Assembly: GCA_964291625.2 (NCBI GenBank)
Contig: OZ220090.1
Location: 896,001 to 960,000, forward strand
DNA: 64,000 nt
Origin: Candidatus Latescibacterota bacterium
GTDB lineage: Bacteria > Latescibacterota > UBA2968 > UBA8231
Direction: 5' to 3'
A model generated the notes under the pieces. That model did not search any database. It was not told the DNA's origin and worked only from the letters and a program-made list of their open reading frames with translations. Each line of letters opens with the position of its first letter. The stretch's first letter is position 1. The position numbers were made by a program, and so were the translations under genes. This document shows, one piece after another, positions 40,963 to 55,900 of this stretch.

Positions 40963-42576
40963 TTGACAGGCTCATCCGGCCGCCGGGCGGACCTCGTGCT
41001 GCGGGGCGGCACCGTCGTGGACGGCACCGGGGCGCCGCCGGCCATCGCCGACGTGGCCGTGACGGGCGGACGCATCCTCGATGTCGGGCCGGCCATCGGG
41101 CTGACCGCCGCCGAGACCCTGGACGTCTCCGGCCTCCTCGTGACGCCCGGGTTCATCGACATCCACAGCCACTCCGACTTCACCCTCACCGTCGATCCGA
41201 GGGCCGTCAGCTCCATCGCCCAGGGGGTGACCCTGGAGGTGGTGGGCAACTGCGGCCACGGCTGCGCCCCCGTGGTCGACCCGAAGGCCGTCAAGGGCAA
41301 CGTCTACGGGTACTCGGAGGAGCATCCCATCCGCTGGGGCACGGTGGCCGAGTACCTCGACGTCCTCGAGGCCGGAGGGCCGGCGGTCAACGTGCTGACC
41401 CTGGTGCCCAACGGCAACCTGCGCCTGGCCGCCGCCGCCGACCTCGACCGTCCGAGCACCGCCGCCGAGCTGGCCCGCATGGAGAGCCTGTTGGAGCAGG
41501 GGCTGGAGGAGGGCGCCTTCGGGTTCTCCACCGGCCTGGAGTACGGCCCCGAGCAGGCCTGCTCCGAGGAGGAGGTGACCCGCCTGTGCCGGGTCGCGGC
41601 CCGGGCCTGGGGCTTCTACGCCACCCACACCCGCAACCGCGCCGGTCAGGCGCGGGAGACCGTGGCCGAGGCGGTCCGCACGGCCGAGGCCGCCGGCGTG
41701 CCGCTGCAGATCTCCCACATCTCGGTCGTGGCGCGGCTGGCCGAGGACGGGGGCCGGGCGGTGGCTGAGGCGGTCGAGCAGGTCGAGGCGGCGCGGCGCC
41801 GGGGGGTGGACGCCGGCTTCGACATGCACACCCGCCTCTTCGGCACGACCAACCTGAGCGCGGTGCTCCCCCCGGAGGCCCTGGCCGGCTCACGGGGCGA
41901 GATCGCCGGGCGGCTGTCCGGGGTCTCCGCCCGCCGGGAGCTGAAGCGCTACCCGAGCATCGTCCACGCCCTCGCCCGCGGCGACTGGAGCCGCATCCTG
42001 CTGGCCGAGTGCCGGGATCCGGCGCTGGCCCACCGGAGCGTGGCCGAGGTCGCCGAGGCCCGCGGCCAGGAGCCCCTCGACGCCGTCTACGACCTGCTCC
42101 TGGAGGAGATCGACGACCTCCACCGGCCGATGATCCTCGCCTTCTGCTACCGCGAGGAGGAGATCCGCCCCGCCTTCCAGCACCCGGACTGCATGGTCGG
42201 CTCCGACGCCACCGCCCTGGCCCCGGACGGGCCGCTGGCGGGGTCCGTCTTCCACGGCGCCTACACCTGGGCCGCCTGGTTCTACCGCCACTTCGTCACC
42301 GACCTCGGGCTGCTGCGGCCCGAGGAGGCGGTCCGGCGCCTCACCTCCCTGCCGGCGGAGCGCCTGGGGCTGTCCGACCGTGGCCGCATCCGCCCCGGGG
42401 CCTGGGCCGACCTGGCGGTGCTGGAGCCGGAGGGCTTCGCCGAGCGGGGCACCACCCGCGACCCGAACCGCACCGCCGCCGGCGTGCGCCACGTCTTGGT
42501 CAACGGCCGCTTGGCCCTGCGCGACGGCGCCCTCACCGCCGAGCGCGCGGGTCGGGTCCTGCGCCGGGTGGCTTGA
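40963..42576 (+). CDS. N-acyl-D-amino-acid deacylase (amidohydrolase)
   Basis: GGTVVDGTG, PGFIDIHSHSD, GNCG, GFSTGLEY, VGSD, GAWADL. Start uncertain (TTG 40963 chosen). Confidence 0.88.
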   Translation: MTGSSGRRADLVLRGGTVVDGTGAPPAIADVAVTGGRILDVGPAIGLTAAETLDVSGLLVTPGFIDIHSHSDFTLTVDPRAVSSIAQGVTLEVVGNCGHGCAPVVDPKAVKGNVYGYSEEHPIRWGTVAEYLDVLEAGGPAVNVLTLVPNGNLRLAAAADLDRPSTAAELARMESLLEQGLEEGAFGFSTGLEYGPEQACSEEEVTRLCRVAARAWGFYATHTRNRAGQARETVAEAVRTAEAAGVPLQISHISVVARLAEDGGRAVAEAVEQVEAARRRGVDAGFDMHTRLFGTTNLSAVLPPEALAGSRGEIAGRLSGVSARRELKRYPSIVHALARGDWSRILLAECRDPALAHRSVAEVAEARGQEPLDAVYDLLLEEIDDLHRPMILAFCYREEEIRPAFQHPDCMVGSDATALAPDGPLAGSVFHGAYTWAAWFYRHFVTDLGLLRPEEAVRRLTSLPAERLGLSDRGRIRPGAWADLAVLEPEGFAERGTTRDPNRTAAGVRHVLVNGRLALRDGALTAERAGRVLRRVA

Positions 42577-43081
42577 GGCCGGGGAGCACCGATCCAAGAG
42601 GGAGGAAGAGCCTGCTTCGCTGTCCCACCAATGGCTTGAAGCCGAAGCTCCGGTAGAACCGCGAGGCCCGCTCGTCCTTGGCATCGACGACCAGAGCATA
42701 GATGGCGATCTCTTCACTGACCGCCAGCGACCGCTTGACGGCATCGGCGAGGAGCAGCCTGCCGATGCCTTGTCCCTGGACGCCTTCAGACACAGCCAGC
42801 CGGCCGATCAGGGCGGCGGGAACCGGATGCCGGGGCAACCTGCGCGCCTTGTCCTCGGGCAGGCCGCTGAGCGCGATCGACAGCGAACTCAGGGTGTAGT
42901 AGCCGAGGACCGCCTCGGAGCCCTGCTCACAGCACACGAAGACGCGAGCGACACGGCGCCGCTGGTCTTGTCCGGCCTGCGTTCGGAGGTAGGAATCGAG
43001 GGCCTCGACCCCGCAGGAGAACGCCGCCCGGTCATGGACTCTGGCGAGCGGCGAGATGGCAAGTGGGGTGGAGGGCGTCAC
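42533..43081 (-). CDS. GNAT acetyltransferase toxin (TacT/AtaT type)
   Basis: HDRAAFSCGVEALDSYL, GYYTLS, LIGRLAV...QGQGIGRLLL, VVDAKDERASRFY. Confidence 0.9.
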   Translation of the reverse strand: MTPSTPLAISPLARVHDRAAFSCGVEALDSYLRTQAGQDQRRRVARVFVCCEQGSEAVLGYYTLSSLSIALSGLPEDKARRLPRHPVPAALIGRLAVSEGVQGQGIGRLLLADAVKRSLAVSEEIAIYALVVDAKDERASRFYRSFGFKPLVGQRSRLFLPLGSVLPGLKPPGAGPDPRARR

Positions 43082-43365
43082 TCCGGGGAAACGCGGAGGG
43101 CATGCTCCTTCAGGGCCGCGGCAAGCCTGGAGTTCATCGCGGACGGCTGAAGGAGAGCATCGAAGAACACCTCCGCATCCCGACGTTTCAACACCATGGT
43201 CTCGTGTTTCCGGATCGTCTGCTCCGCCTGGGCCAGCGCACTTGACAGAATGAAGCTGCTCGTGGTCTTGCCCTCGAAGCTGGCTGCCTGCTCGATCCGC
43301 TCCTTGGCCGCCGGGTCCAGGCGAATGTTGAAACGCTCGCTCTTGGCTGTGGACGTCTGCGACAT
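43078..43365 (-). CDS. DUF1778 RHH antitoxin (TacA/AtaR type)
   Basis: KSERFNIRL...IEQAA...SSFILSSA...FFDALLQP. Overlaps the toxin start. Confidence 0.9.
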   Translation of the reverse strand: MSQTSTAKSERFNIRLDPAAKERIEQAASFEGKTTSSFILSSALAQAEQTIRKHETMVLKRRDAEVFFDALLQPSAMNSRLAAALKEHALRVSPE

Positions 43366-43407
43366 GTGAATCCTCCCGTCGGTGACCCCGAGTTGGTCCG
43401 TGGTGGC

Positions 43408-43436
43408 AGTGTACGTCGATATGGTGCCTTGGTCAA
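43408..43436 (-). promoter_or_regulatory. sigma70 promoter of the TA operon
   Basis: Minus strand TTGACC-17 bp-TACACT, with GGAGG RBS before ATG 43365. Confidence 0.65.
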
Positions 43437-43642
43437 CAGCCCGCCATTCAGCCGGCCGTTCTCGGAGGCCGTGGGTCAGCCGTCGTCGCCCCCCAACGAC
43501 CTGCGCAGCGGCAGCAGGTCCGGCGCAGGAACGCTGGACGGAGCCTCACCGTGCCTGTAGAGTGTCCCGTGAAGGCGGCAGAGTTGATCGGATCTCCCTA
43601 CCCGCGCGGTGGCCGGAGCCCGGCGGCGAGGCGGAGGACGAG

Positions 43643-43810
43643 GTGACCACTGGACGGATCATTCGGGATCGCATCTCGCGCACCGACCTGGCGAGCCTGG
43701 CCGAGGAGCAGTTCGGGGACTGGATCGAGTTCGACTCGATGACCAACCTGCGGCCGAGCCAGGGCAACCGAGGCCGAATCCGGGAGGTCGTCGAATCCCT
43801 GGTTCCATGA
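43643..43810 (+). pseudogene. Internally deleted DUF5674-like gene
   Basis: IIRDRISRTDLASLAEEQFGD is joined directly to WIEFDSMTNLRPSQGNR. From recall of this family, the middle portion is missing. Confidence 0.5.
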
Positions 43811-44196
43811 CCAGAGTCCTGCACAGGAACGCCGCGGAGGGCTGGGCGCGGCTGGAGCTGGTGGAGCAGCTCGGGAACGTGGGCAGCGAGGTGGAGCGCG
43901 CGATCCGGGCCCACGAGGCCGGCCGCACTGCCCGGTTCGAGAGCGCCCTCGAGCGGGCCCTGGAGCTGTTCGATCTGACCGCCACCGACCCCCGCTGGCG
44001 AGGTCACCGGTGCCAGGAAATCCTGCGCGCACGCGAGCAGTTCTGCCGCCTCTTCTTCGATCCCCACGTGCCGCCCGACTCGGCCCCAGGGCTCAGACGC
44101 TACTTCTTCGGATTCGCTTGGGCGGCCCGGGCGCTTCATCATCGCCGGCAGTCCGGGGATTCCCGGGTCGAAGGCCAAGCCGGCCCCGGGGCATAG
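43807..44196 (+). CDS. Conserved hypothetical helical protein
   Basis: ATGA overlap. W..L.L.EQLGNVGSEVERA...ERALELFDLT..DPRW...EILRARE pattern. Confidence 0.65.
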   Translation: MTRVLHRNAAEGWARLELVEQLGNVGSEVERAIRAHEAGRTARFESALERALELFDLTATDPRWRGHRCQEILRAREQFCRLFFDPHVPPDSAPGLRRYFFGFAWAARALHHRRQSGDSRVEGQAGPGA

Positions 44197-44198
44197 AG

Positions 44199-45713
44199 GT
44201 GTCCGGCAGCCCGACAGGGGGGGAAGGCGGTCCAGGCGGCGCCGGCCTGCTCCGGCCCGCCGCCGTGACCCTGCTCGCGGCCGGCTTCTACCGCCTCCTG
44301 CAGCAGCTCCTCACCGTTCCGGGTCTGGACCCGTCGGTCCTGGCCGAGTACGGACTGGACCGCCCCTCAGGGCTGCCCGGGGGCGGTCCGGTGCACCTCG
44401 TGGCGCCGTGGATGCCCCACGCCGTCTCGGGGACCGCGGCCATCGGCACCTATGTCAGCGCCTCCGTCCTCGTCGTCCTCCTGAGCGGCCTGATCCCCTC
44501 CCTGCGGCGCCTGCGGGAGGCGGGCGTCTCGAACCAGGCCGGCTTCCAGTGGGTCATCGCCGCGGCCACCGCCCTCCTGGCCGCGGGCCACGCGCTGGTG
44601 ACGGCCCTCTACCTCGAGGGAATCCAAGGCCCGCTGTCCGGGCTGCCCGCGGTCCCGGCCCCGGGGTGGGCCTTCCGCGCGGGGACGATGCTGACCGCGA
44701 CCGCCGCCGCCCTGCTGGTCCTGTGGCTGGCCCGGCAGGTCACCGCCCGGGGTCTCGGCAACGGCGTGGTCATGCTGCTGGCGGCCGACATCCTCGGACG
44801 GTGGTACGCGGCTGCGCCGGCCCAGTGGCTGGACTGGACCGGGGCCATCGATCCCGTCCATCAGGGAGTTCGGGCGGCCCTGTTCCTCCTGGCCCTGCTG
44901 GTGCTGGCCATAGTCCTGCTGAAGGCGCGGCGCCTCGTGCCCCTGGAGCGGACCTCCGGCCCCGCCGGAGCGGAGGCGGAAGCGGCTCCGTCCCTGCCTC
45001 TGCGGATCAATCCCTGCGGCGCACTGCCCGCGGTGGCGGCCCCTGTGTGGCTCTTCACCGGCTTCGACCTGGCCGCGGGTCCGTCCCTGGTTGCCGCCGC
45101 CATCGCCACCTGCCTGCTCGTGGTGCTGGCCGCCCACCTCTACGCTGTCGAGGTCTTCCATCCCCGCGACGCCGTCGAGCGCCTCGGGTGGCTCGGGTTC
45201 CGCCTCACCGAGGCCGCTTCCCCCGAAGACGCCGTCCGTCGTCTGCGCGGCGCCCAGCAGCGTGTCATGGTGCCCGGCACGCTCGGACTCTGCGCGCTGG
45301 CCCTGGCCCCCTGGATCGCCGGCAGCGGACTGGACCTGCCCCCGGACTGGAGCTTCATGTGCGGTCTCGACGCCCTCGTCCTGGCAGCCGCGGGCCTCCA
45401 CCTGCGGCAGCAGATCCGCAGCCGGAGGTCCCTCGCCGGCCGCGAGGTTGCCCCGGTGCTGGTTGCCGAGACCCGGTTCGAGCTCGACCTCGCCGCCGAC
45501 GTCCTGCGCCGGGCCGGCATCGACAGCCGGATCCGCGACGACCGGGTGATCGCCGCCACCGGCACCCACGCCCTCTGGGAGGTCAGCCGGCCGCGGTGGC
45601 CGAGCCTGGCCGTGTACCCGCACCTCGGCGGCGGCCAGGCCCTGCTGCTGGTGGACGCCGCCGAGGCCGAGGCGGCCGAGGGAGTGCTGCGGGAGGCCGG
45701 GCAGGAGGTTTAG
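44199..45713 (+). CDS. Divergent SecY-like membrane protein with C-terminal DUF2007-like domain
   Basis: VPGLD, AIGTYVSASVLVVLL..LIPSLRRLREAG, LTATAAALLVLWLARQVTARGLGNGVVMLL, LPLRINPCGALPAVAA, FHPRDAVERL. Tail EL.LAADVLRRAGIDSRIRD...LLVDAAEAEAAEGVL. Confidence 0.75.
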   Translation: MSGSPTGGEGGPGGAGLLRPAAVTLLAAGFYRLLQQLLTVPGLDPSVLAEYGLDRPSGLPGGGPVHLVAPWMPHAVSGTAAIGTYVSASVLVVLLSGLIPSLRRLREAGVSNQAGFQWVIAAATALLAAGHALVTALYLEGIQGPLSGLPAVPAPGWAFRAGTMLTATAAALLVLWLARQVTARGLGNGVVMLLAADILGRWYAAAPAQWLDWTGAIDPVHQGVRAALFLLALLVLAIVLLKARRLVPLERTSGPAGAEAEAAPSLPLRINPCGALPAVAAPVWLFTGFDLAAGPSLVAAAIATCLLVVLAAHLYAVEVFHPRDAVERLGWLGFRLTEAASPEDAVRRLRGAQQRVMVPGTLGLCALALAPWIAGSGLDLPPDWSFMCGLDALVLAAAGLHLRQQIRSRRSLAGREVAPVLVAETRFELDLAADVLRRAGIDSRIRDDRVIAATGTHALWEVSRPRWPSLAVYPHLGGGQALLLVDAAEAEAAEGVLREAGQEV

Positions 45714-45845
45714 ACGCCGGCCGAGGCTGGGGCGCGGCGCGAGGACCGCGTTCGATTCGTCGGCGATCGCGCGGCGCGGGACTGACAGCCGTTCGCTGGG
45801 GGCGAGCCACCACAGCAAGGCATGGGTGTCCAGCAGGACACGCAC
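45714..45845 (-). pseudogene. Truncated VapC/PIN toxin
   Basis: MRVLLDTHALLWWLAPSERLS...AIADESN, then PIN similarity is lost at the 3' end of the SecY-like gene. Confidence 0.75.
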
Positions 45846-45846
45846 G

Positions 45847-46082
<236 letters not shown>

Positions 46083-46195
46083 TCAGATTGCCAGGATCGA
46101 CAGGGTCAAGGCCAGCGTCCCACATCGCCCGGACATCCATCGCCAGGCACGGGGATTGGCCCGCTCCGTCCGATGGCCTATGATGAGCCACCCCC

Positions 46196-46564
46196 ATGCA
46201 AGCCCGATCTCCCCTCTTCATCCACTACGTCGCCGACATGGACAGGGCGATCCGGTTCTACACCGGCGTCTTCAAGGCCCCCGTCGCCTTCCGGTCCTCC
46301 GGCTGGACGACCCTGGAGTTCGACGGCTTCCAGCTCGCCCTGCACGTCTGGTCCGCGGACCGGCTGCAGGAGGTGCTCCTGCCGAACGCCGGACTCTGCC
46401 TGCTGGTCGACTCGATCGAGGAGTTCCAGCGGTCGATCGAGTCCCACGGCGGCTCGATGGAGAGCCTCCGGGAGCCCAAGGAGGGCGTGCCGGTGCGGGT
46501 CGCTTCCTTCCTCGATCCGGAAGGCAACGGCTTCGACCTCCGGCAGGAGGTCCGCTCCGGCTGA
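46196..46564 (+). CDS. VOC/glyoxalase family protein
   Basis: YVADMDRAIRFY...FLDPEGNGFDL. Confidence 0.85.
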   Translation: MQARSPLFIHYVADMDRAIRFYTGVFKAPVAFRSSGWTTLEFDGFQLALHVWSADRLQEVLLPNAGLCLLVDSIEEFQRSIESHGGSMESLREPKEGVPVRVASFLDPEGNGFDLRQEVRSG

Positions 46565-47592
46565 TGTCCCGGGTGCGACTGGCCCTCGTCGGGTGCGGCG
46601 GCATGTCGAGGTCGCACCTGCGCCGCTTCCACGTCCTCTCCGACCGCCTGGAGCTGGTCGCCGCGGTCGACGTCGACGCCGGCAAGGCCGCCGCCGTGGC
46701 CGAGATGATGCCCGGTGTGCACTCGGCCGCCGACTACCGCGAGGTCCTCGACGAGGTCGACGCCGTCCTCCTCGTCCTCCCCCACCACGAGCACCACCCC
46801 GTGGGGCTCGCCTGCCTGCGGGCCGGCAAGCACGTCCTGTTGGAGAAGCCGATGGCCATCGGCGAGGCCGCCTGCCTGGAGCTGATCGACGCCAGCCGCG
46901 CCGCCGGGCGGGTGCTGATGATCGCCTACTGCATGCGCTTCCACCCCCTCGTGTCGGGCATGAAGCGGCTCATCGACGACGGCGCCTGCGGCGACGTCTT
47001 CCAGGTCTCCATCTGGACCGAGCAGCTCACCCGCTACCACGAGGGGCACTGGGCCCTGAAGGAGGCCACCCTCGGCGGCGGCCAGTTCTTCAGCCACGGC
47101 TGCCACTACGTCGACATCCTGCTGTGGTACCTGGGACGGCCGGTGCGCGGCGTGCACTTGGGCACCAACCGGGGCACCCCCTGGATGGAGCGCGAGGGGA
47201 CGAGCAACGCCGTCCTCGAGTTCGAGGGCGGCCGCCTGGGCTACCACTTCGGCACCTGGGGCGCCCGCGGCACGCGCCTGGGCTACGCCTTCCACGCCCA
47301 CGGCACCGAGGGCATGATCGAGGCCGACATCCGGGGCGGCGAGCTGCGCCTGCTGAAGGGCGGGGAGACGGAGGTCGTGGCCCGCCACGAGACCGGCAAG
47401 CACACGGAGAACGAGATGGCTCACTTCCTCGACTGCATCGAGAGCGGCACCGAGCCCCTCACGGGCGGGCCGGCGAGCCTGCAGAGCCTGCGGGCGATCT
47501 GGCGCATGTACGAGGCCGAGGTCGCCGGCGGCATGGCCGACCTGAGGGGCCTGGGCCTGGACCAGGTCGACGACCGCGGGAGGCTGACGTGA
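46564..47592 (+). CDS. Gfo/Idh/MocA oxidoreductase
   Basis: LVGCGGM, GKHVLLEKPM, GGG...HGCHYVD. Confidence 0.92.
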   Translation: MSRVRLALVGCGGMSRSHLRRFHVLSDRLELVAAVDVDAGKAAAVAEMMPGVHSAADYREVLDEVDAVLLVLPHHEHHPVGLACLRAGKHVLLEKPMAIGEAACLELIDASRAAGRVLMIAYCMRFHPLVSGMKRLIDDGACGDVFQVSIWTEQLTRYHEGHWALKEATLGGGQFFSHGCHYVDILLWYLGRPVRGVHLGTNRGTPWMEREGTSNAVLEFEGGRLGYHFGTWGARGTRLGYAFHAHGTEGMIEADIRGGELRLLKGGETEVVARHETGKHTENEMAHFLDCIESGTEPLTGGPASLQSLRAIWRMYEAEVAGGMADLRGLGLDQVDDRGRLT

Positions 47593-49913: not shown

Positions 49914-52900
49914 CTACCGGATCAGGGCGATCTTGCCGACGCGGACCTGGCCGCCGGCGATCAGCCGGTAGAGATAGAGGCCGGAGGCCGCCGGCCGGCC
50001 GTGCTCGTCGATGCCGTACCATTCCCGGGCGTGCCGCCCGGCCTCCAGGATCTCGCCTCCCACCAGCTCGGCCACGACCTGGCCGGCCACGTTGTAGACG
50101 GTCAGGGTCACCGGGCCCGCCTCCGGCAGCTGGAAGTGCAGGGTGGTGCTCGGGTTGAAGGGGTTGGGCGCAGGCCGACCGCCAAGGAGCCGGCCGGCCC
50201 CAGTCCGTCCATCCCGCCGACGGCCACCGGCTTGGCGACGACCACCACTTCGTCTTCGCCGGGCTCGGGGACCTCGCCCTCGGGCATCAGTTCGTCCTCG
50301 GTCTCTTCGTGGACCCCCCGGGCTCCTCCGGAGGCGCCGGGACCCAGGGCCGACGCCGAGACCTGGGCGGTGGTGCCGTAGCCGACAGCGTTACGGGCCC
50401 GCACGTGGAAGACGTACGAGGCGCCGTCGTCGAAGTTGCTCCACGACTTGCTGCGGGCGTCGGCCCCGCCGGCGCGGCGGTACCAGCCGCGCCAGTTCTC
50501 GTCCCCGGTCTTCTTGTAGCGGTAGTAGTAGTGCAGGACGGGCGAGCCATTGGCCGGCGCCGCGCCCCAGGTCAGCTCCATGAATCCGTTGCCGCCCTGC
50601 CGGTCGGTGGCCAGGTTCGTCGGCGCCCCGGGCAAGGTGGCCGGCGTCGCCGAGGCGCTGGAGGCGGCCCCGTCGCCGACGCTGTTGTGGCCCCGCACCT
50701 CGAAGGCGTACGACGTGCCGTTGGTCAGCCCGGTCACCGTCGTGTCGCGGGCGCTGCCGGCGCCGGGCACGGCCGTCCAGCCCGCGCCCGCGCGGCGGAT
50801 GTCATAGCGGTCGACGGCGGCGCCCCGGCCGTCGGCCGCCCCCCAGGAGAGGGCGACCTGCGCGTTGCCGCGCACGGCGCGGAAGCTTGGCGGCGCCTTG
50901 GGCGTGTTCGCCCGCACGACGCCGGACCGGCCGGCCGCGCTCTTGCCCGAGCCGTGGTTGTCCGTGTAGCTGACCGACGCCTCCAGACGCTTGCCGACAT
51001 CGGAAGCCGGCACGGTGTAGCGGTACGACTGCACCGAGGAGGCCTGGCCGGCGGCGCCGCTTTCGGTACTCCAGGACCAGGTCGGCCCGGTGATGCCTCC
51101 GTCCTCGTCGGTGAGGGTGGCCGTGACATGCTCTCCCACCTTGGGACGGCCGCGATCCAGGGTGACGACCCCCGGGTCGTCGGCGTTGGTCACCGTCACC
51201 GTCACCGGACGACTCGCCGACGCCGACCCGTCGGTGACCTGCACGGTCACGCTGTAGGAACTCTTGGCCTCGAAGTTGGGCGCACTGTTGAATCTCAGCG
51301 ATCGGGACGACCCGGTACCGGACAGCTCGCGGAAGTCACTGGCGTCGGTCCCCGCCCGCGACCACGTGAGCGGGAGCGTCGCATCGCAGGCGCTCGAACG
51401 CGTGACCCTGTAGGTGCCCACCGATCCGGTGCCGTTCTCGGCGTAGTTCACATCGGTCGAGCCCGACAGAGACAGGACACAGGGCACCGGGGTCCCGTCG
51501 ATGCCCGCCGCCAGGCTCCGGCCGGCGCCGTTGGCGGCCCGGATCTCGAAGCGGTAGGGCACGTCGTTGTCGAGCCCCGGAACCGTCACCGACGTACCCG
51601 CCGCGCCCCCGCTGTCCTCCCACGCCGTCTGCGACTTTTTCCGGTACCAATACCGATACCCCGTGATCGTCGAGCCGCAGTTGTCCGGGGCTCTCCAGGA
51701 CAGCGAGACCCGCCGGTCGGCCCCCGTCGATCTCAGACCGGTCGGCGTTCGCGGGGTGTTGGCGGCCACCGCCGCCGAGGTCAGGGTGGCCGTATTCCGG
51801 TCCGAGGCCCGATCCCCGTACCTCACGGTCACCCGCAGGGTCTTCCCCACGCTCGAATTGGCCGGCAGGTAGCTCCGGGTCGTGGAGGTCCCGGCCGAAC
51901 CGCTGGCCGCCGCGACCTGCGGCTCCCACTCCCATCCGTAGGTGAAAGTCGGCGGAGTCGTCGGAGATGCGGAAGCCTCCGTATTGATCCCGGCGTCCTC
52001 GTCCTTGAGGGTGGCGTTCACATGGGCGCACGTCATCGGCGTGGATGGGGACAGGGTGATCGTGCCCGCCTCGGGCCGGTTGGTCACCGTCACCGTCACC
52101 GGCTTGCTCGAGGACGCCTCCGGCGAGCCGTCGTCGGTGGCCACGACCGTGACCTTGTAGCTGTTGTCGGTGTCCGCATCGTCGGCCGACTCGAAGTTTG
52201 GTATCGAGCCGAAGCGCAAAGCGCCGCTGTCGGAGGGATCCTGGAAGTCGGCGGCGTCCGCGCCCAAGAGACTCCAGGTGACGCTGTCCTCTTCCGGGTC
52301 GGTGGCGGTGTAGCTGGCCACCGTAGCCGTGGTGGGGGTGTTCTCGGGCACCGACTTGCTGGACGGCCCCGTGATCACCGGCGGCTCGTTGACGTCGGTC
52401 ACCCGCACCGACCTCGGGAAAGTGCCCGCGCTGCCGGACGGATCGCTCACCCGGATCGTGACGGAATAGATGCGCTTCGCCTCGTAGTTGGGCGCCGAGA
52501 CGAAGTGCAGGGACCTCTGGTTGGGGTGCCCGGTCACAGCGCGCAGCTCCTTGAAGCTGCTGGCGTCCGAGCCCGTCCGGCTCCACGTCAGAGGGCCGCA
52601 GAGGGAACTGGCCGACGCCTCGTACACCCCGACCGTGGGCGTCGAGTTCTCCGGTACGTCCGTCTTTGAGACTTCCGAGACCGTGATCACGCATTCCGGG
52701 TCCGCCTCCGGCGTGGCCGAGGCCGGGCTCGAGGCCGGCCCTTCGCCCACCGGATTGACGGCCCGCACCTCGAAGGTGTACCCGGTGCCGTTGTCCAGCC
52801 CCGTGACGGGGTGGCTCGTGGCATCGCCGGCGATCGGCGGGGTCTCGGGCCACGCCGACCAGGTGGACCCGGCCGTGTGGGCGCTGTCCCGGTAGGCATA

Positions 52901-55900
52901 CCCGGTGATCCACGCCCCGTTGCTGTCGGCCGCGGTCCAGCGCAGGGTCACCCGGCCGTCGCCGGCCGTCGCCTGCAGAGACCCAGGCGCCCCCGGCACG
53001 TTGGCCCGCACCGCCGCCGTGGTGTCGCTGACCGCCCGGTCCGGACCATGCCCGTCGGTATAGGTGACCTTGGCCAGCAGGCGCTGGCCCTTGACCCGGT
53101 CCTCCACCGTGTAGCGCTGGCTCTGCGCCGGGGCCTGCCTCCGCTGCCGGGTGGACGACGCGCCGTCCAGCTCTTCCCAGCTCCAGCGGTCGTTGGTCAC
53201 GCCTTGGTCCGGGTCGGTCAGGGTGGCCGTCAGGTGCATGCCCACCCTCGGCTCCATCGTGTTCAGGGTCACCCGCCCCGCCTCCGGCGCGTTGGTCACC
53301 GCCACCGTCATGTCGTGGGAAGCCGAGGCCGCCGGCTCCCCGTCGTCTTTGACCGTGAGCGTCACCTCGTAGAAGTTGTCCTCGTCCGCGTCGTCCGGCG
53401 CCTCGAAGTCGGGCGCCGTCTCGAAGTAGAGGGTGTCCCCCCGCACCTTGAACAACCCGACATCGGCCCCCGCGTGCGACCAGGCGATGGCCTGGCCTTC
53501 CGGGTCCGTGGCCGACAGCGTGGCCACCGAGTCGGTGCGGTGTTCGGCGAACCACACCGTGTCAGGTTCCGTGATCACCGGGGGCCGGTTGCCGCGGTTG
53601 CCCTGCGGCGTCGCCCGGACACTGTCCGCCCGGCCGTAGCCCTCGCCATTGTGGGCCCACACCTGGAACACGTACTCGATGTCGTTGTCCAGAGCCGTCA
53701 CCGTCGTGTCCCGGGCGCTGCCCCCGCCCGGGACCGCCGACGAGTCGCGGCCGGCCCAGTTCGGGCCGCTGCGGTAGCGCAACTCGTAGCGGTCGATGGC
53801 CGAACCGTGGGCCGCCGCCGCCGTCCAGGTCAGCTCCACCTGCCCGTCGCCCGCCTCGGCCTGCAGGTCGCCTGGAGGGCCCGGCACGTTGGCCCGCACC
53901 GCCGCCGTGGTGTCGCTGACCGCCTGGTCCGGACCATGCCCGTCGGTATAGGTGACCTTGGCCAGCAGGCGCCGGCCCTTGACCCGGTCCTCCACCGTGT
54001 AGCGCTGGCTCTGCGCCGGGGCCCGCGTCCGCTGCCGGGCGGACGAGGCGCCGTCCAGCTCCTCCCAGCTCCAGCGGTCGTGGGCCACGCCTTGGTCCGG
54101 GTCGGTCAGGGTGGCCGTCAGGTGCATGCCCACCCTCGGCTCCATCGTGTTCAGGGTCACCCGGCCCGCCTCCGGCGCGTTGGTCACCGCCACCGTCATG
54201 GCGTGGGAGGCCGAGGCCGCCGGCTCCCCGTCGTCGGTGGCCGTGAGCGTCACCTGGTAGAAGTTGTCCTCGTCCGCGTCCGCCGGCGCCTCGAAGTCGG
54301 GCGCCCTGAAGGCGGGCGTCATCTTGAAGGAAAGGGTGTCCCCCCGCACCTTGAACAACCCGACATCGGCCCCCGCGTGCGACCAGGCGACGGCGTCGTC
54401 TTCCGGGTCGGAGGCCGACAGCGTGGCCACCGAGTCGGTCCGGTTTCGGCGAACCACACCGTGTCCGGCGCCGTGATCACCGGGGGCCGGTTGCCCCGGT
54501 TGCCCTGCGGCGTCGCCTCCTTCTCGGCCGGGGTCCCGAGGTTCACCCGGTTCCGGGCGGCCACCCGAAACCCATACGGCGTGCCGTTGCTCAGCTCGGT
54601 GATCGTCGTGTCCCGCGCTGTCGAATCCCCCGGCACCACCGACCAGGTCACGTCCGACCAGTCCACCTCGGCCCCCGAGTGGCTCTTGGGGGCATACTGA
54701 ACCTCGTAGGCGGTGATCGGTGCGCCGTTGGAGTCGGCCGCGGTCCAACTCAACGCCAACTGCCCGTCGCCGGGCTCCGCCGTGAAGTCCCCCGGCGCCC
54801 GAGGCGCCCCCGCCGGCGTGACCGTCGTGTCCACCGACGCCCCCGCCGCCGCCCCGGTGTAGGCCCGCACCTCGAAGGTGTGGGCCACCCCGTTGCTCAG
54901 TTCCTGGGGCAGATAGCGAGTCCAGCCCTTCAGGAAATCGAACCAGGCCGTCGTGTCCCCGGGGACGATCTCGCGGTAGTGATAACCCAGCAGAGGCGAC
55001 CCGCCTGTCGTCCCCGCCGCCGCCCAGGTCAACAATACCTGTCCGTCGCCAGCCTCCGCTTTGAAATTCCGCGGCGCCGACGGCCCCACCGGGATGTCCG
55101 TCGACCAGGCCCCCGCCGGGCGCGACCGCACCCGGTACCGGTAGCGGTACTTCACGTCCAGGGGGTGGCGCTCCGTGGACGGGGTGTGCTGGAAAGTGAC
55201 TCTCATGTCGGCCGACGGCAGGCTCTCGTTGGCCAGCGTGGCCAGCCAGGCATACTCCGACCATCCGGACGTCCCTCTGACCAATTGCCGCTGGAACTCC
55301 AGCCGGTACCCGGCCGCGGCCGGGACCGCCTTCCAACGGACCTCGATCCCTTCGGCGCTTGCGTGAGCGCTCCCCTCTTTCGGGGCCGCAACCGGCGGCG
55401 GCAGCTTGGCGAAGCCGTGGCCCCAGGTGTTGTCCGGACTAGAGTGACGATCTGCCTTGGACTTCAGGTAATCGGCGATCTTCTTCGGGGTATCGTGGAT
55501 GTCGCCCAGCTCCTGGATCACCAGCGCCGCCAGACCCGCCACCCGGGGGGCGGCGATGCTCGTGCCCGACTCACCGCTCTCCAGGCCGCCGACGAGGTCA
55601 GGCTTGATGCGGCCGTCGGGTGTGGGCTCGGGGGCGGGGCCTCGGGCGCTGTAGGCCTTGATTCCAGGGGGATCGGACAGGTCGGCGGCCCCCACGGCCA
55701 GCATGCCCGTATTGGCGCTCTCCGCGGGATTGCCGATGCTGCCGGTCATACTGGCGTCCTGCCAGGGATCGGATCGACCCGAGAAATCTTGCAGTTGAAC
55801 CCATCCGGGAGAGCTGCCACGGAGTCTCCTCACACTCAACCAGTATTGGCCCGCCGACCAGATGGGGGACTCGGTATCCATTAGAATCTCCATCGGAACG

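Follow-up and report, generated by a model that had tools for sequence, protein, structure and literature searches.

Why would a bacterium that has a housekeeping secY gene carry a second, strongly diverged one with a soluble domain at its C-terminus? The question is raised by a gene of a Candidatus Latescibacterota bacterium (GTDB lineage Bacteria; Latescibacterota; UBA2968; UBA8231), lying in a stretch of 64,000 nucleotides that we analysed as a whole and refer to as the window (GenBank assembly GCA_964291625.2, contig OZ220090.1, positions 896,001 to 960,000 of the forward strand). The gene (window positions 44199..45713, + strand) was delimited by open reading frame (ORF) and Pfam analysis, an AlphaFold2 (AF2) model and structural alignment; it starts with GTG and encodes 504 amino acids followed by a stop codon. 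An earlier note on this DNA had described its product as an orphan, highly divergent SecY paralogue fused to a DUF2007-like domain. We show that the protein, hereafter the paralogue, is an intact accessory member of the SecY/Sec61-alpha family. Its C-terminal domain (CTD) is predicted to reach into the cytoplasmic vestibule of the channel, and that the paralogue is an accessory SecY-type channel plugged, or auto-inhibited, and gated by this domain is a proposition that we regard as evenly balanced.

An intact SecY paralogue in addition to the housekeeping gene

The GTG start lies 2 nt past the stop codon of the upstream ORF, in a region of about 73% G+C, and a homologue (P0002) starts at the same position and is likewise 504 amino acids long. 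The four degenerate SecY-like strings listed in the earlier note are all present in the translation: AIGTYVSASV (residues 81–90), WLARQVTARGLGNGVV (176–191), PLRINPCGALPAVAA (267–281) and FHPRDAVERL (320–329). Its assignment of the protein as a divergent SecY paralogue was borne out both by a match to the structures of the SecY fold and by the Pfam SecY model (PF00344), which scores 103.2 bits over residues 82–382 (E 2.3e-29, cut-off 32.2). Sixteen distinct solved SecY sequences match the paralogue, the best being 3dl8_G (E 2.6e-23, residues 24–407). The more specialised models fail: the housekeeping SecY equivalog TIGR00967 reaches 69.9 bits against a cut-off of 253.6, and of the two SecY2 models TIGR02920 reaches 15.8 bits (cut-off 249.6) and NF009082 14.7 bits (cut-off 353).

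We searched the rest of the genome (5.9 Mb in 2 contigs, 95% complete) for other components of the Sec pathway. PF00344 matches two proteins genome-wide, the paralogue at 104.6 bits and a canonical SecY at 384.8 bits, so that the paralogue is not the only SecY of its host. The canonical gene (G000:C2:745853-746899) lies about 194 kb upstream and encodes a 444-residue protein; judging from the translations of its neighbours, it stands between the genes for L15/S5 and those for L36/S13/S11. It is thus the canonical copy that the ribosomal-protein genes surround, and the earlier statement that the paralogue lies outside the spc operon is correct. The two SecY proteins share 26% identity across 403 residues. 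SecE is encoded once, adjoining nusG, and SecG and SecA (one SecA_DEAD match) are also present as one copy each. Since SecA is single, the genome lacks secA2, as had been proposed for this locus; no Asp genes were seen among the neighbours in the window, the Asp models not having been run genome-wide. A canonical SecY match was likewise found in all 8 genomes of the phylum that have an intact CTD-bearing copy.

A complete channel fold with a hydrophobic pore ring

The SecY-type domain, with ten transmembrane (TM) helices, comprises residues 1–414 (44199..45440, +), where the ten long helices of the AF2 model align to whole SecY chains. This model, built from a 117-row alignment, has a predicted local distance difference test (pLDDT) score of 90.2 and a predicted template modelling (pTM) score of 0.90, with low confidence at residues 1–10 and 61–78 only; it replaced a run on an alignment of 18 close homologues that had reached a pLDDT of 55.2. 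A Foldseek search of the PDB gave 54 matches at E ≤ 1e-3, and among the matches listed (50) all were SecY or Sec61. When aligned with VIA-align, model residues 1 to 418 span the whole of the SecY chain 8ya3_Y (Z 25.7, root-mean-square deviation 3.4 over 377 residues). Structure prediction, which the earlier note had suggested as a check, thus recovers a ten-TM SecY fold.

The full pore ring of E. coli SecY consists of six residues, I82, I86, I187, I191, I278 and I408. Residues I82, V86, V190, L194 and V279 of the paralogue align to E. coli positions 82, 86, 187, 191 and 278 (5abb_A), and the sixth position, at about V394, is our own reading, as the 5abb_A alignment ends at residue 287. The ring-equivalent residues of the paralogue are hydrophobic. 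One report (PMC4148884) names I86, I191 and I278 as ring isoleucines and places the plug at residues 60–74. The corresponding plug (TM2a) region of the paralogue (residues 61–78; 44379..44432, +) is degenerate: no helix is predicted in it, its pLDDT is below 50, and the alignment shows a gap of 12 residues here in five of the 18 close homologues (P0025–P0029). The L-G-I-x-P-Y motif just after the plug is kept by the wider family.

A DUF2007-like domain follows the last transmembrane helix

Beyond TM10, residues 415–504 (45441..45710, +) make up the soluble tail of about 90 residues that had been noted in the sequence. In the model it is a cytosolic domain of the order beta-alpha-beta ... beta-alpha, with strands at 417–422 and 443–447, a helix at 426–438 and a short helix at 450–454, then an ordered loop (455–480), a strand (481–486) and a final helix (487–499), at a pLDDT of 94–97. 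The loop and an insertion within it (residues 449–479; 45543..45635, +) carry the pattern R-V-I-x-x-T-G-T...W-E-x-x-R-P...L-G-G-G and form the part predicted to enter the vestibule.

The proposed likeness of the tail to DUF2007 holds at the level of profiles, and falls short of a Pfam-level match. PF09413 scores 16 bits on the paralogue (E 0.014), under its gathering score of 25.7, and reaches E ≤ 0.01 in seven of 34 diverse family members (best 7e-4). A profile-profile comparison by hhalign with 11 DUF2007 domains from related genomes gave a probability of 88.4% (E 2.8e-6, 58 columns). The order of secondary-structure elements is common to the CTD and to stand-alone DUF2007 proteins; the CTD differs from these in its sub-threshold score, in a 21-residue family-specific insertion (residues 460–480) that holds an invariant W, E and P, and in its fusion to SecY. 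On this profile evidence the CTD is a remote relative of DUF2007. A CTD profile run against PDB sequences gave two matches only, both at chance level (E 0.16 and 1.1). An Atlas search with the CTD alone had a top score of 0.78 and placed a DUF2007 cluster at rank 5 (0.77), which we take as a lead only.

Among longer proteins the CTD profile found 39, of which 38 also have PF00344; the remaining one is a 185-residue fragment. Two short proteins were also found, 69% and 91% identical to the CTD of the paralogue. As candidates for a free-standing CTD neither was taken as evidence: P0187 is a C-terminal fragment that starts within the TM domain, and P0188, at 91% identity, consists of nothing but the CTD.

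The cytosolic face is remodelled across the family

Three cytosolic elements set the paralogue apart. The C5 loop between TM8 and TM9 (residues 320–348; 45156..45242, +) has its PGxRPG motif replaced, reading GWLGFRLTEAASP opposite GGFIPGVRPGKRT in the canonical SecY of the same genome. Together with this pairwise alignment, the absence of PGx[RK]PG from all 57 CTD-bearing sequences confirms the loss of the C5 loop motif asserted earlier; in the same alignment the motif is present in 19 of 60 other SecY-like sequences, a set biased toward divergent SecYs. Positive charge is lost from the C4 loop between TM6 and TM7 (residues 243–270; 44925..45008, +), whose hairpin tip in the paralogue reads ERTSGPAGAEAEAAPS; the median net charge of C4 is +1 in the 57 family members and +5 in the 60 others. 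C4 and C5 are described as major ribosome and FtsY sites, with residue 357 touching FtsY, SecA and uL23, in PMC4602035. As far as the alignments tell, the docking features for ribosome, SecA and FtsY, a basic C4 and the C5 PGxRPG, are gone from the family.

The third element, the end of TM2b and the C2 loop (residues 96–108; 44484..44522, +), carries a family-specific conserved cytosolic motif, S-G...L-R-R-L-R-x-G. Conservation confined to the family was seen at ten positions of the TM domain (S96, G97, R103, R104, R106, G108, F116, A178, R269 and A397); the six that fall in this motif (S96, G97, R103, R104, R106 and G108) are 76–98% conserved in the family versus 17–54% in other SecYs. The basic stretch L-R-R-L-R-D-G is a family-specific gain on the cytosolic face.

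The C-terminal domain is predicted to dock in the vestibule

The TM domain (residues 1–414) and the CTD (415–504), both taken from a 34-row alignment, were submitted as partners to complex prediction by ESMFold2. The pair reached an ipSAE of 0.74 (0.75, 0.65 and 0.74 in individual runs), compared with 0.00 for the best of three controls. The mark used for this score is reached by 58 of 80 solved complexes and by 2 of 110 mismatched pairs, and is a rough guide here, our own alignment having been used. Agreement of contacts between runs was at least 86%, and the partner pLDDT at least 75. Searches for a solved complex similar to the TM domain–CTD pair found none.

On the CTD side the predicted interface comprises residues 444–459, 461–473 and 475–481. 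The channel contributes the C2 region (92–120), the start of TM5 (187–194), C4 and the start of TM7 (261–274), TM8 and C5 (314–334), the cytosolic half of TM10 (393–412) and, in TM2b, residues 85–86 and 89–90. C2 residues 96–98, 103 and 106 are within it. The tightest predicted pairs link CTD residues 450–453 with V190, V191, L194 and A397; since V86, V190, L194 and V394 are pore-ring equivalents, the tip of the CTD loop is predicted to approach from the cytosol and reach the constriction. The predicted interface takes in eight of the ten TM-domain positions whose conservation is family-specific. Conservation within the family is 0.55 at the interface versus 0.36 in the rest of the TM domain, and in other SecYs the same columns are also somewhat more conserved (0.56 versus 0.45). 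These models suggest that the CTD loop sits in the cytoplasmic vestibule.

Distribution, ancestry and selection

The paralogue is no orphan, contrary to the earlier description. A word-indexed search returned 31 proteins, of which 29 (P0002–P0030) are 54–96% identical to it; the source of one of these close homologues labels it Gemmatimonadaceae. When cluster representatives were scanned exhaustively with HMMER, 1621 matched at E ≤ 1e-3 and 27 at E ≤ 1e-30. Alignment runs from TM1 to the extreme C-terminus in many proteins of 450–570 residues that are just 22–37% identical; metagenomic proteins in this range of identity with the same architecture number in the dozens, and family members at 22–55% identity align through the CTD. 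PF00344 matches all 34 diverse members, and the common architecture is a ten-TM SecY domain followed by a CTD of about 90 residues. Nine columns are invariant in these 34 (N188, G189, G274, G455, W460, E461, P465, L476 and V485); six of them lie in the CTD, and five (G455, W460, E461, P465 and L476) in its loop and insertion.

In a quick FastTree phylogeny of the TM domain without the CTD, which has long branches, 43 of the 46 CTD-bearing rows, together with a variant-motif protein (P0092), fall on one side of a branch with support 91, unstarred; three outlier CTD-bearing rows sit on long branches. The canonical SecYs of the phylum form a separate, starred clade. As the tree splits the paralogues from the canonical SecYs, we take the paralogue to be an old lineage and not a recent duplicate of the host gene.

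Within the phylum the CTD profile is found in nine of 168 genomes: five of the ten genomes of the window's genus, its own included, both genomes of the sister genus, one genome of another family in the same class (G042) and one of another family outside the class (G009). The G042 copy (L040; G042:C1, 6680-10128, −) is divided in two by an ORF that encodes a DDE_Tnp_1 transposase domain (E 7.9e-15). Relatives in public records bear the label Gemmatimonadaceae or Candidatus Latescibacterota, and the G+C content of family loci ranges from 38% to 72%. Collection scans yielded only six and five loci, which says little on the true range because these scans need one or two exact peptide patterns. In an Atlas search with the whole protein the nearest clusters have SecY plus DUF2007 on 11–17% of members, their commonest phyla, Acidobacteriota and Myxococcota, being an unconfirmed lead. 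The paralogue belongs to a sizeable and widespread SecY subfamily that is apparently undescribed.

Five of the 34 diverse members (P0041, P0044, P0052, P0057 and P0067) have, as read from the alignment, an N-terminal extension of about 60–100 residues with two CPxC pairs, and Pfam zinc-ribbon models match three of the five. In these members the extension gives the channel a second cytosolic domain.

A different fusion was seen among the sequences collected. P0079, a metagenomic representative of 583 residues, combines a full SecY domain (217.8 bits) with a C-terminal SecE domain (36.3 bits). In the tree it groups with P0094, P0105, P0156 and P0168 in a starred clade, and the CTD is absent from all of these.

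To gauge constraint, nonsynonymous (dN) and synonymous (dS) divergence were determined for the paralogue and four orthologues of the same genus. Values of dN were 0.09–0.12 and of dS 0.23–0.37, and the ratios that we calculated from them 0.29–0.42; the CTD alone gave dN/dS of 0.16–0.35 in the same four pairs. Canonical secY in the same genome pairs had a dN of 0.002–0.012 and a dN/dS of 0.015–0.031. Neither frequent frameshifts or stops nor a dN/dS near 1 was found among the six orthologues compared. Selection on the paralogue is therefore purifying but much relaxed, as would be expected of an accessory gene.

A proposed channel gated by its own tail, and alternatives

How might such a protein work? 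The gating, and any physiological role of the paralogue, are matters that we infer. The family retains what a polypeptide channel needs, namely a complete ten-TM SecY channel with a hydrophobic pore ring. The earlier suggestion of a repurposed SecY-fold channel or sensor would be compatible with its remodelled cytosolic face and with the docking predicted for the tail. According to the models, the CTD loop and insertion (R449...G455...W460-E461...P465...G479) would fold into the vestibule and reach the pore ring, filling the site that the two-helix finger of SecA or a nascent chain would normally enter. In such a channel SecA or ribosomes could presumably not provide the usual driving force, and opening, or use through the lateral gate, might require that some signal, partner or substrate first displace the CTD. 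A bolder claim, which we find tempting and rather doubtful, is that the family would represent the first case of a SecY channel whose cytosolic gate is built in, a DUF2007-type loop acting as pseudo-substrate or plug and a signal opening the channel independently of SecA and ribosomes; by extension, free-standing DUF2007 proteins might be trans-acting binders of the SecY vestibule.

Comparison with known systems helps to place the paralogue. With canonical SecY (PF00344; TIGR00967) it shares the ten-TM hourglass fold, the P-Y-x-S-A-S, G-N-G and L-P-L-R-x-N motifs and the hydrophobic ring positions; it differs in lacking the C5 PGxRPG and a basic C4, in having the family-specific C2 motif and the CTD, and in being a dispensable gene outside the spc operon, found in 9 of 168 genomes of the phylum. 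Among bacteria, the one second SecY that has been studied well is the SecY2 of Gram-positive cocci. To our knowledge SecY2 has no fused cytosolic domain, nor are we aware of any SecY described with a regulatory domain fused to it. We found no description of the SecY-DUF2007 architecture in full-text literature search listings, subscription journals and supplements aside.

The closest functional parallels of the CTD are Syd and the two-helix finger of SecA. [quoted passage not shown] The CTD is predicted on the same C4/C5 face as Syd; Syd acts in trans, whereas the CTD is joined covalently to TM10 and is predicted to extend as far as the pore ring. Syd is not known to be a DUF2007 protein. As to the finger in the SecY vestibule (for example PDB 3DIN and 5EUL), the modelled TM domain of the paralogue fits SecA-bound, substrate-engaged SecY best; the finger, however, is part of an ATPase motor and moves substrate, and the CTD has no ATPase and lies within the channel polypeptide. 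If the CTD truly occupies the vestibule, the family would be a natural experiment in how the cytosolic side can seal or gate a protein-conducting channel. It would also place the uncharacterised DUF2007 in a functional context for the first time, and would give bacteria a way to run a second translocon without competition for SecA or ribosomes.

Several observations weigh against a CTD-gated channel. The docking is a prediction only, made by ESMFold2 with our own alignments, and the CTD would lie near the vestibule in any case because the linker between it and TM10 is short. The best-fitting SecY structures (Z 25.7) are SecA-bound and substrate-engaged, and resting T. thermophilus SecYEG gives Z 20.5, but this compares different species and may mean little. 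About seven independent genomic contexts yielded no regulator, substrate, partner or conserved neighbour. The dN of the paralogue is about 10–50 times that of canonical secY in the same genome pairs; this, the transposase-split copy and the presence of the CTD in only 9 of 168 genomes mark the gene as dispensable and its constraint as relaxed. Evidence of transcription is weak, consisting of pieces in contigs of three metatranscriptome runs, all belonging to a single study, and metatranscriptome libraries can also contain DNA.

Some of the same features would also suit a permanently sealed protein of SecY fold whose pore passes no polypeptides, be it a scaffold, a lateral-gate insertase, a small-molecule or ion channel, or a membrane-anchored sensor in which the DUF2007-type domain does the signalling. 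Conservation within the family is highest in the CTD, whose loop and insertion hold five of the nine invariant columns; the docking motifs for ribosome and SecA are lost; the plug region is degenerate in the paralogue and shortened in 5 of 18 close homologues; the CTD is predicted to fill the vestibule; and Pfam labels DUF2007 a 'putative prokaryotic signal transducing protein'. What speaks for a conducting channel is that the ring positions stay hydrophobic and that G-N-G, P-Y and other channel motifs are kept across the family, as would be expected if polypeptide conduction still matters, and that no ligand-binding motif or signalling output domain was found. We consider the sealed protein unlikely. 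At the other extreme, the paralogue could be a conventional alternative translocon that is driven by SecA or ribosomes and in which the CTD is a peripheral module for stability, localisation or assembly. The complete SecY fold with its hydrophobic ring would fit, as would the absence of dedicated partner genes nearby and the single SecE, SecG and SecA of the genome, which the paralogue would need to share with the housekeeping SecY. We nevertheless judge this quite improbable: none of the 57 members has the C5 motif, the charge of C4 is gone, the predicted position of the CTD overlaps the vestibule that the SecA two-helix finger enters, and C4 and C5 are major SecA, FtsY and ribosome sites as described in PMC4602035 and PMC8082313.

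It is very unlikely that the gene is a functionless duplicate decaying in a region of genomic flux, a relic like the adjoining toxin-antitoxin (TA) remnants. Its dN/dS of 0.3–0.4 is 10–20 times that of canonical secY, its distribution is patchy (9/168 genomes) with a transposase-split copy in G042, and synteny breaks beside it in genomes of the same genus that do not have it. Against this reading, the frame of 504 codons is intact; dN/dS stays below 1 and is lowest in the CTD, the architecture and invariant residues persist at 22–37% identity and on contigs of 38–72% G+C, and the protein has a high-confidence model. An accessory Sec (aSec) system of the SecY2 type (TIGR02920), known from streptococci and staphylococci and exporting a dedicated glycoprotein with SecA2 and Asp proteins, shares with the paralogue the presence of a second, divergent SecY beside the housekeeping copy, and the place of the paralogue outside the spc operon would fit. 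Such a system is largely refuted here, as the paralogue gives no significant match to the SecY2 models, the genome has one SecA and no SecA2, and the neighbours in the window (hydantoinase, amidohydrolase, GNAT/TacA, glyoxalase, GFO/IDH/MocA and PhyH-like) include no Asp or glycosyltransferase genes. By weight, then, the alternatives rank from the sealed protein through the conventional translocon and the decaying duplicate to the SecY2-type system, the last two being poorly supported.

Genomic neighbourhood and expression

Upstream of the paralogue lies an ORF of 129 residues with no known family (43807..44196, +), its stop 2 nt before the start of the paralogue. This is a neighbour at the level of the genus only: it is found at 88–90% amino acid identity in all four same-genus loci (L033–L036), and was not found in the other seven loci searched, including L037–L039 and L047. 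It has no Pfam, NCBIfam or PADLOC match, and contains an R-x4-H string that we presume to be reminiscent of HEPN toxins. The stretch before it (43382-43810, +) matches relatives in two frames, which suggests a frameshifted partner.

A survey of homologue neighbourhoods, which the earlier note had called for, showed flanks in common within the genus only: hydantoinase B and amidohydrolase on one side, and on the other glyoxalase, a GFO/IDH/MocA oxidoreductase and weak ceramidase-like and PhyH-like matches. Outside the genus the loci (L037/L038, L039 and L047) have unrelated metabolic genes, among them 2-hydroxyacid dehydrogenase, Amidohydro_2, Kdo transferase and HIT. The GFO/IDH/MocA oxidoreductase occurs near the gene in the window and in L047, and about 5 kb off in L039; because the family is common, we treated this co-occurrence as chance and set it aside as a partner.

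The gene had been described as lying among TA relics, which holds for one side at most. Upstream, a TacA-like antitoxin (Pfam TacA1, E 3.5e-21) and a GNAT acetyltransferase (42533-43365, −), whose frames overlap by 4 nt, look intact; the pair is absent from the four same-genus loci compared. Downstream and abutting the 3′ end of the paralogue, 45740-46221 (−) holds what we take, by its motifs, to be a putative remnant of a vapB-like C-terminus and some 35 residues of a PIN-like N-terminus. It is conserved in three same-genus loci and has no Pfam or NCBIfam match. Contig depth spikes at 45740-46221 in several runs.

In same-genus genomes without the paralogue, homology to the window starts only at about 46550, and no clean insertion or deletion boundary was found at the empty site. 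PADLOC gave no match, and hence no sign of a defence role, for the paralogue (P0001) and two upstream ORFs. Rfam found no family anywhere in the window, and a terminator-like site, or a promoter-like site directly upstream of the paralogue, was not seen. The stretch was found mainly in runs labelled sponge metagenome; as all runs are contigs, depth and uncovered stretches cannot rank expression.

Further downstream, contig depth reaches about 515 at 46825-47001 in the main DNA run, against roughly 9–50 in most other bins, and many loose ends occur at 46817-46859, inside the GFO/IDH/MocA gene. The peak is probably a segment conserved across many community members. A very long ORF (49914-55336, −; 1742 residues in the raw list) is followed by one of 65 residues, which presumably resembles a C-terminal secretion-sorting domain.

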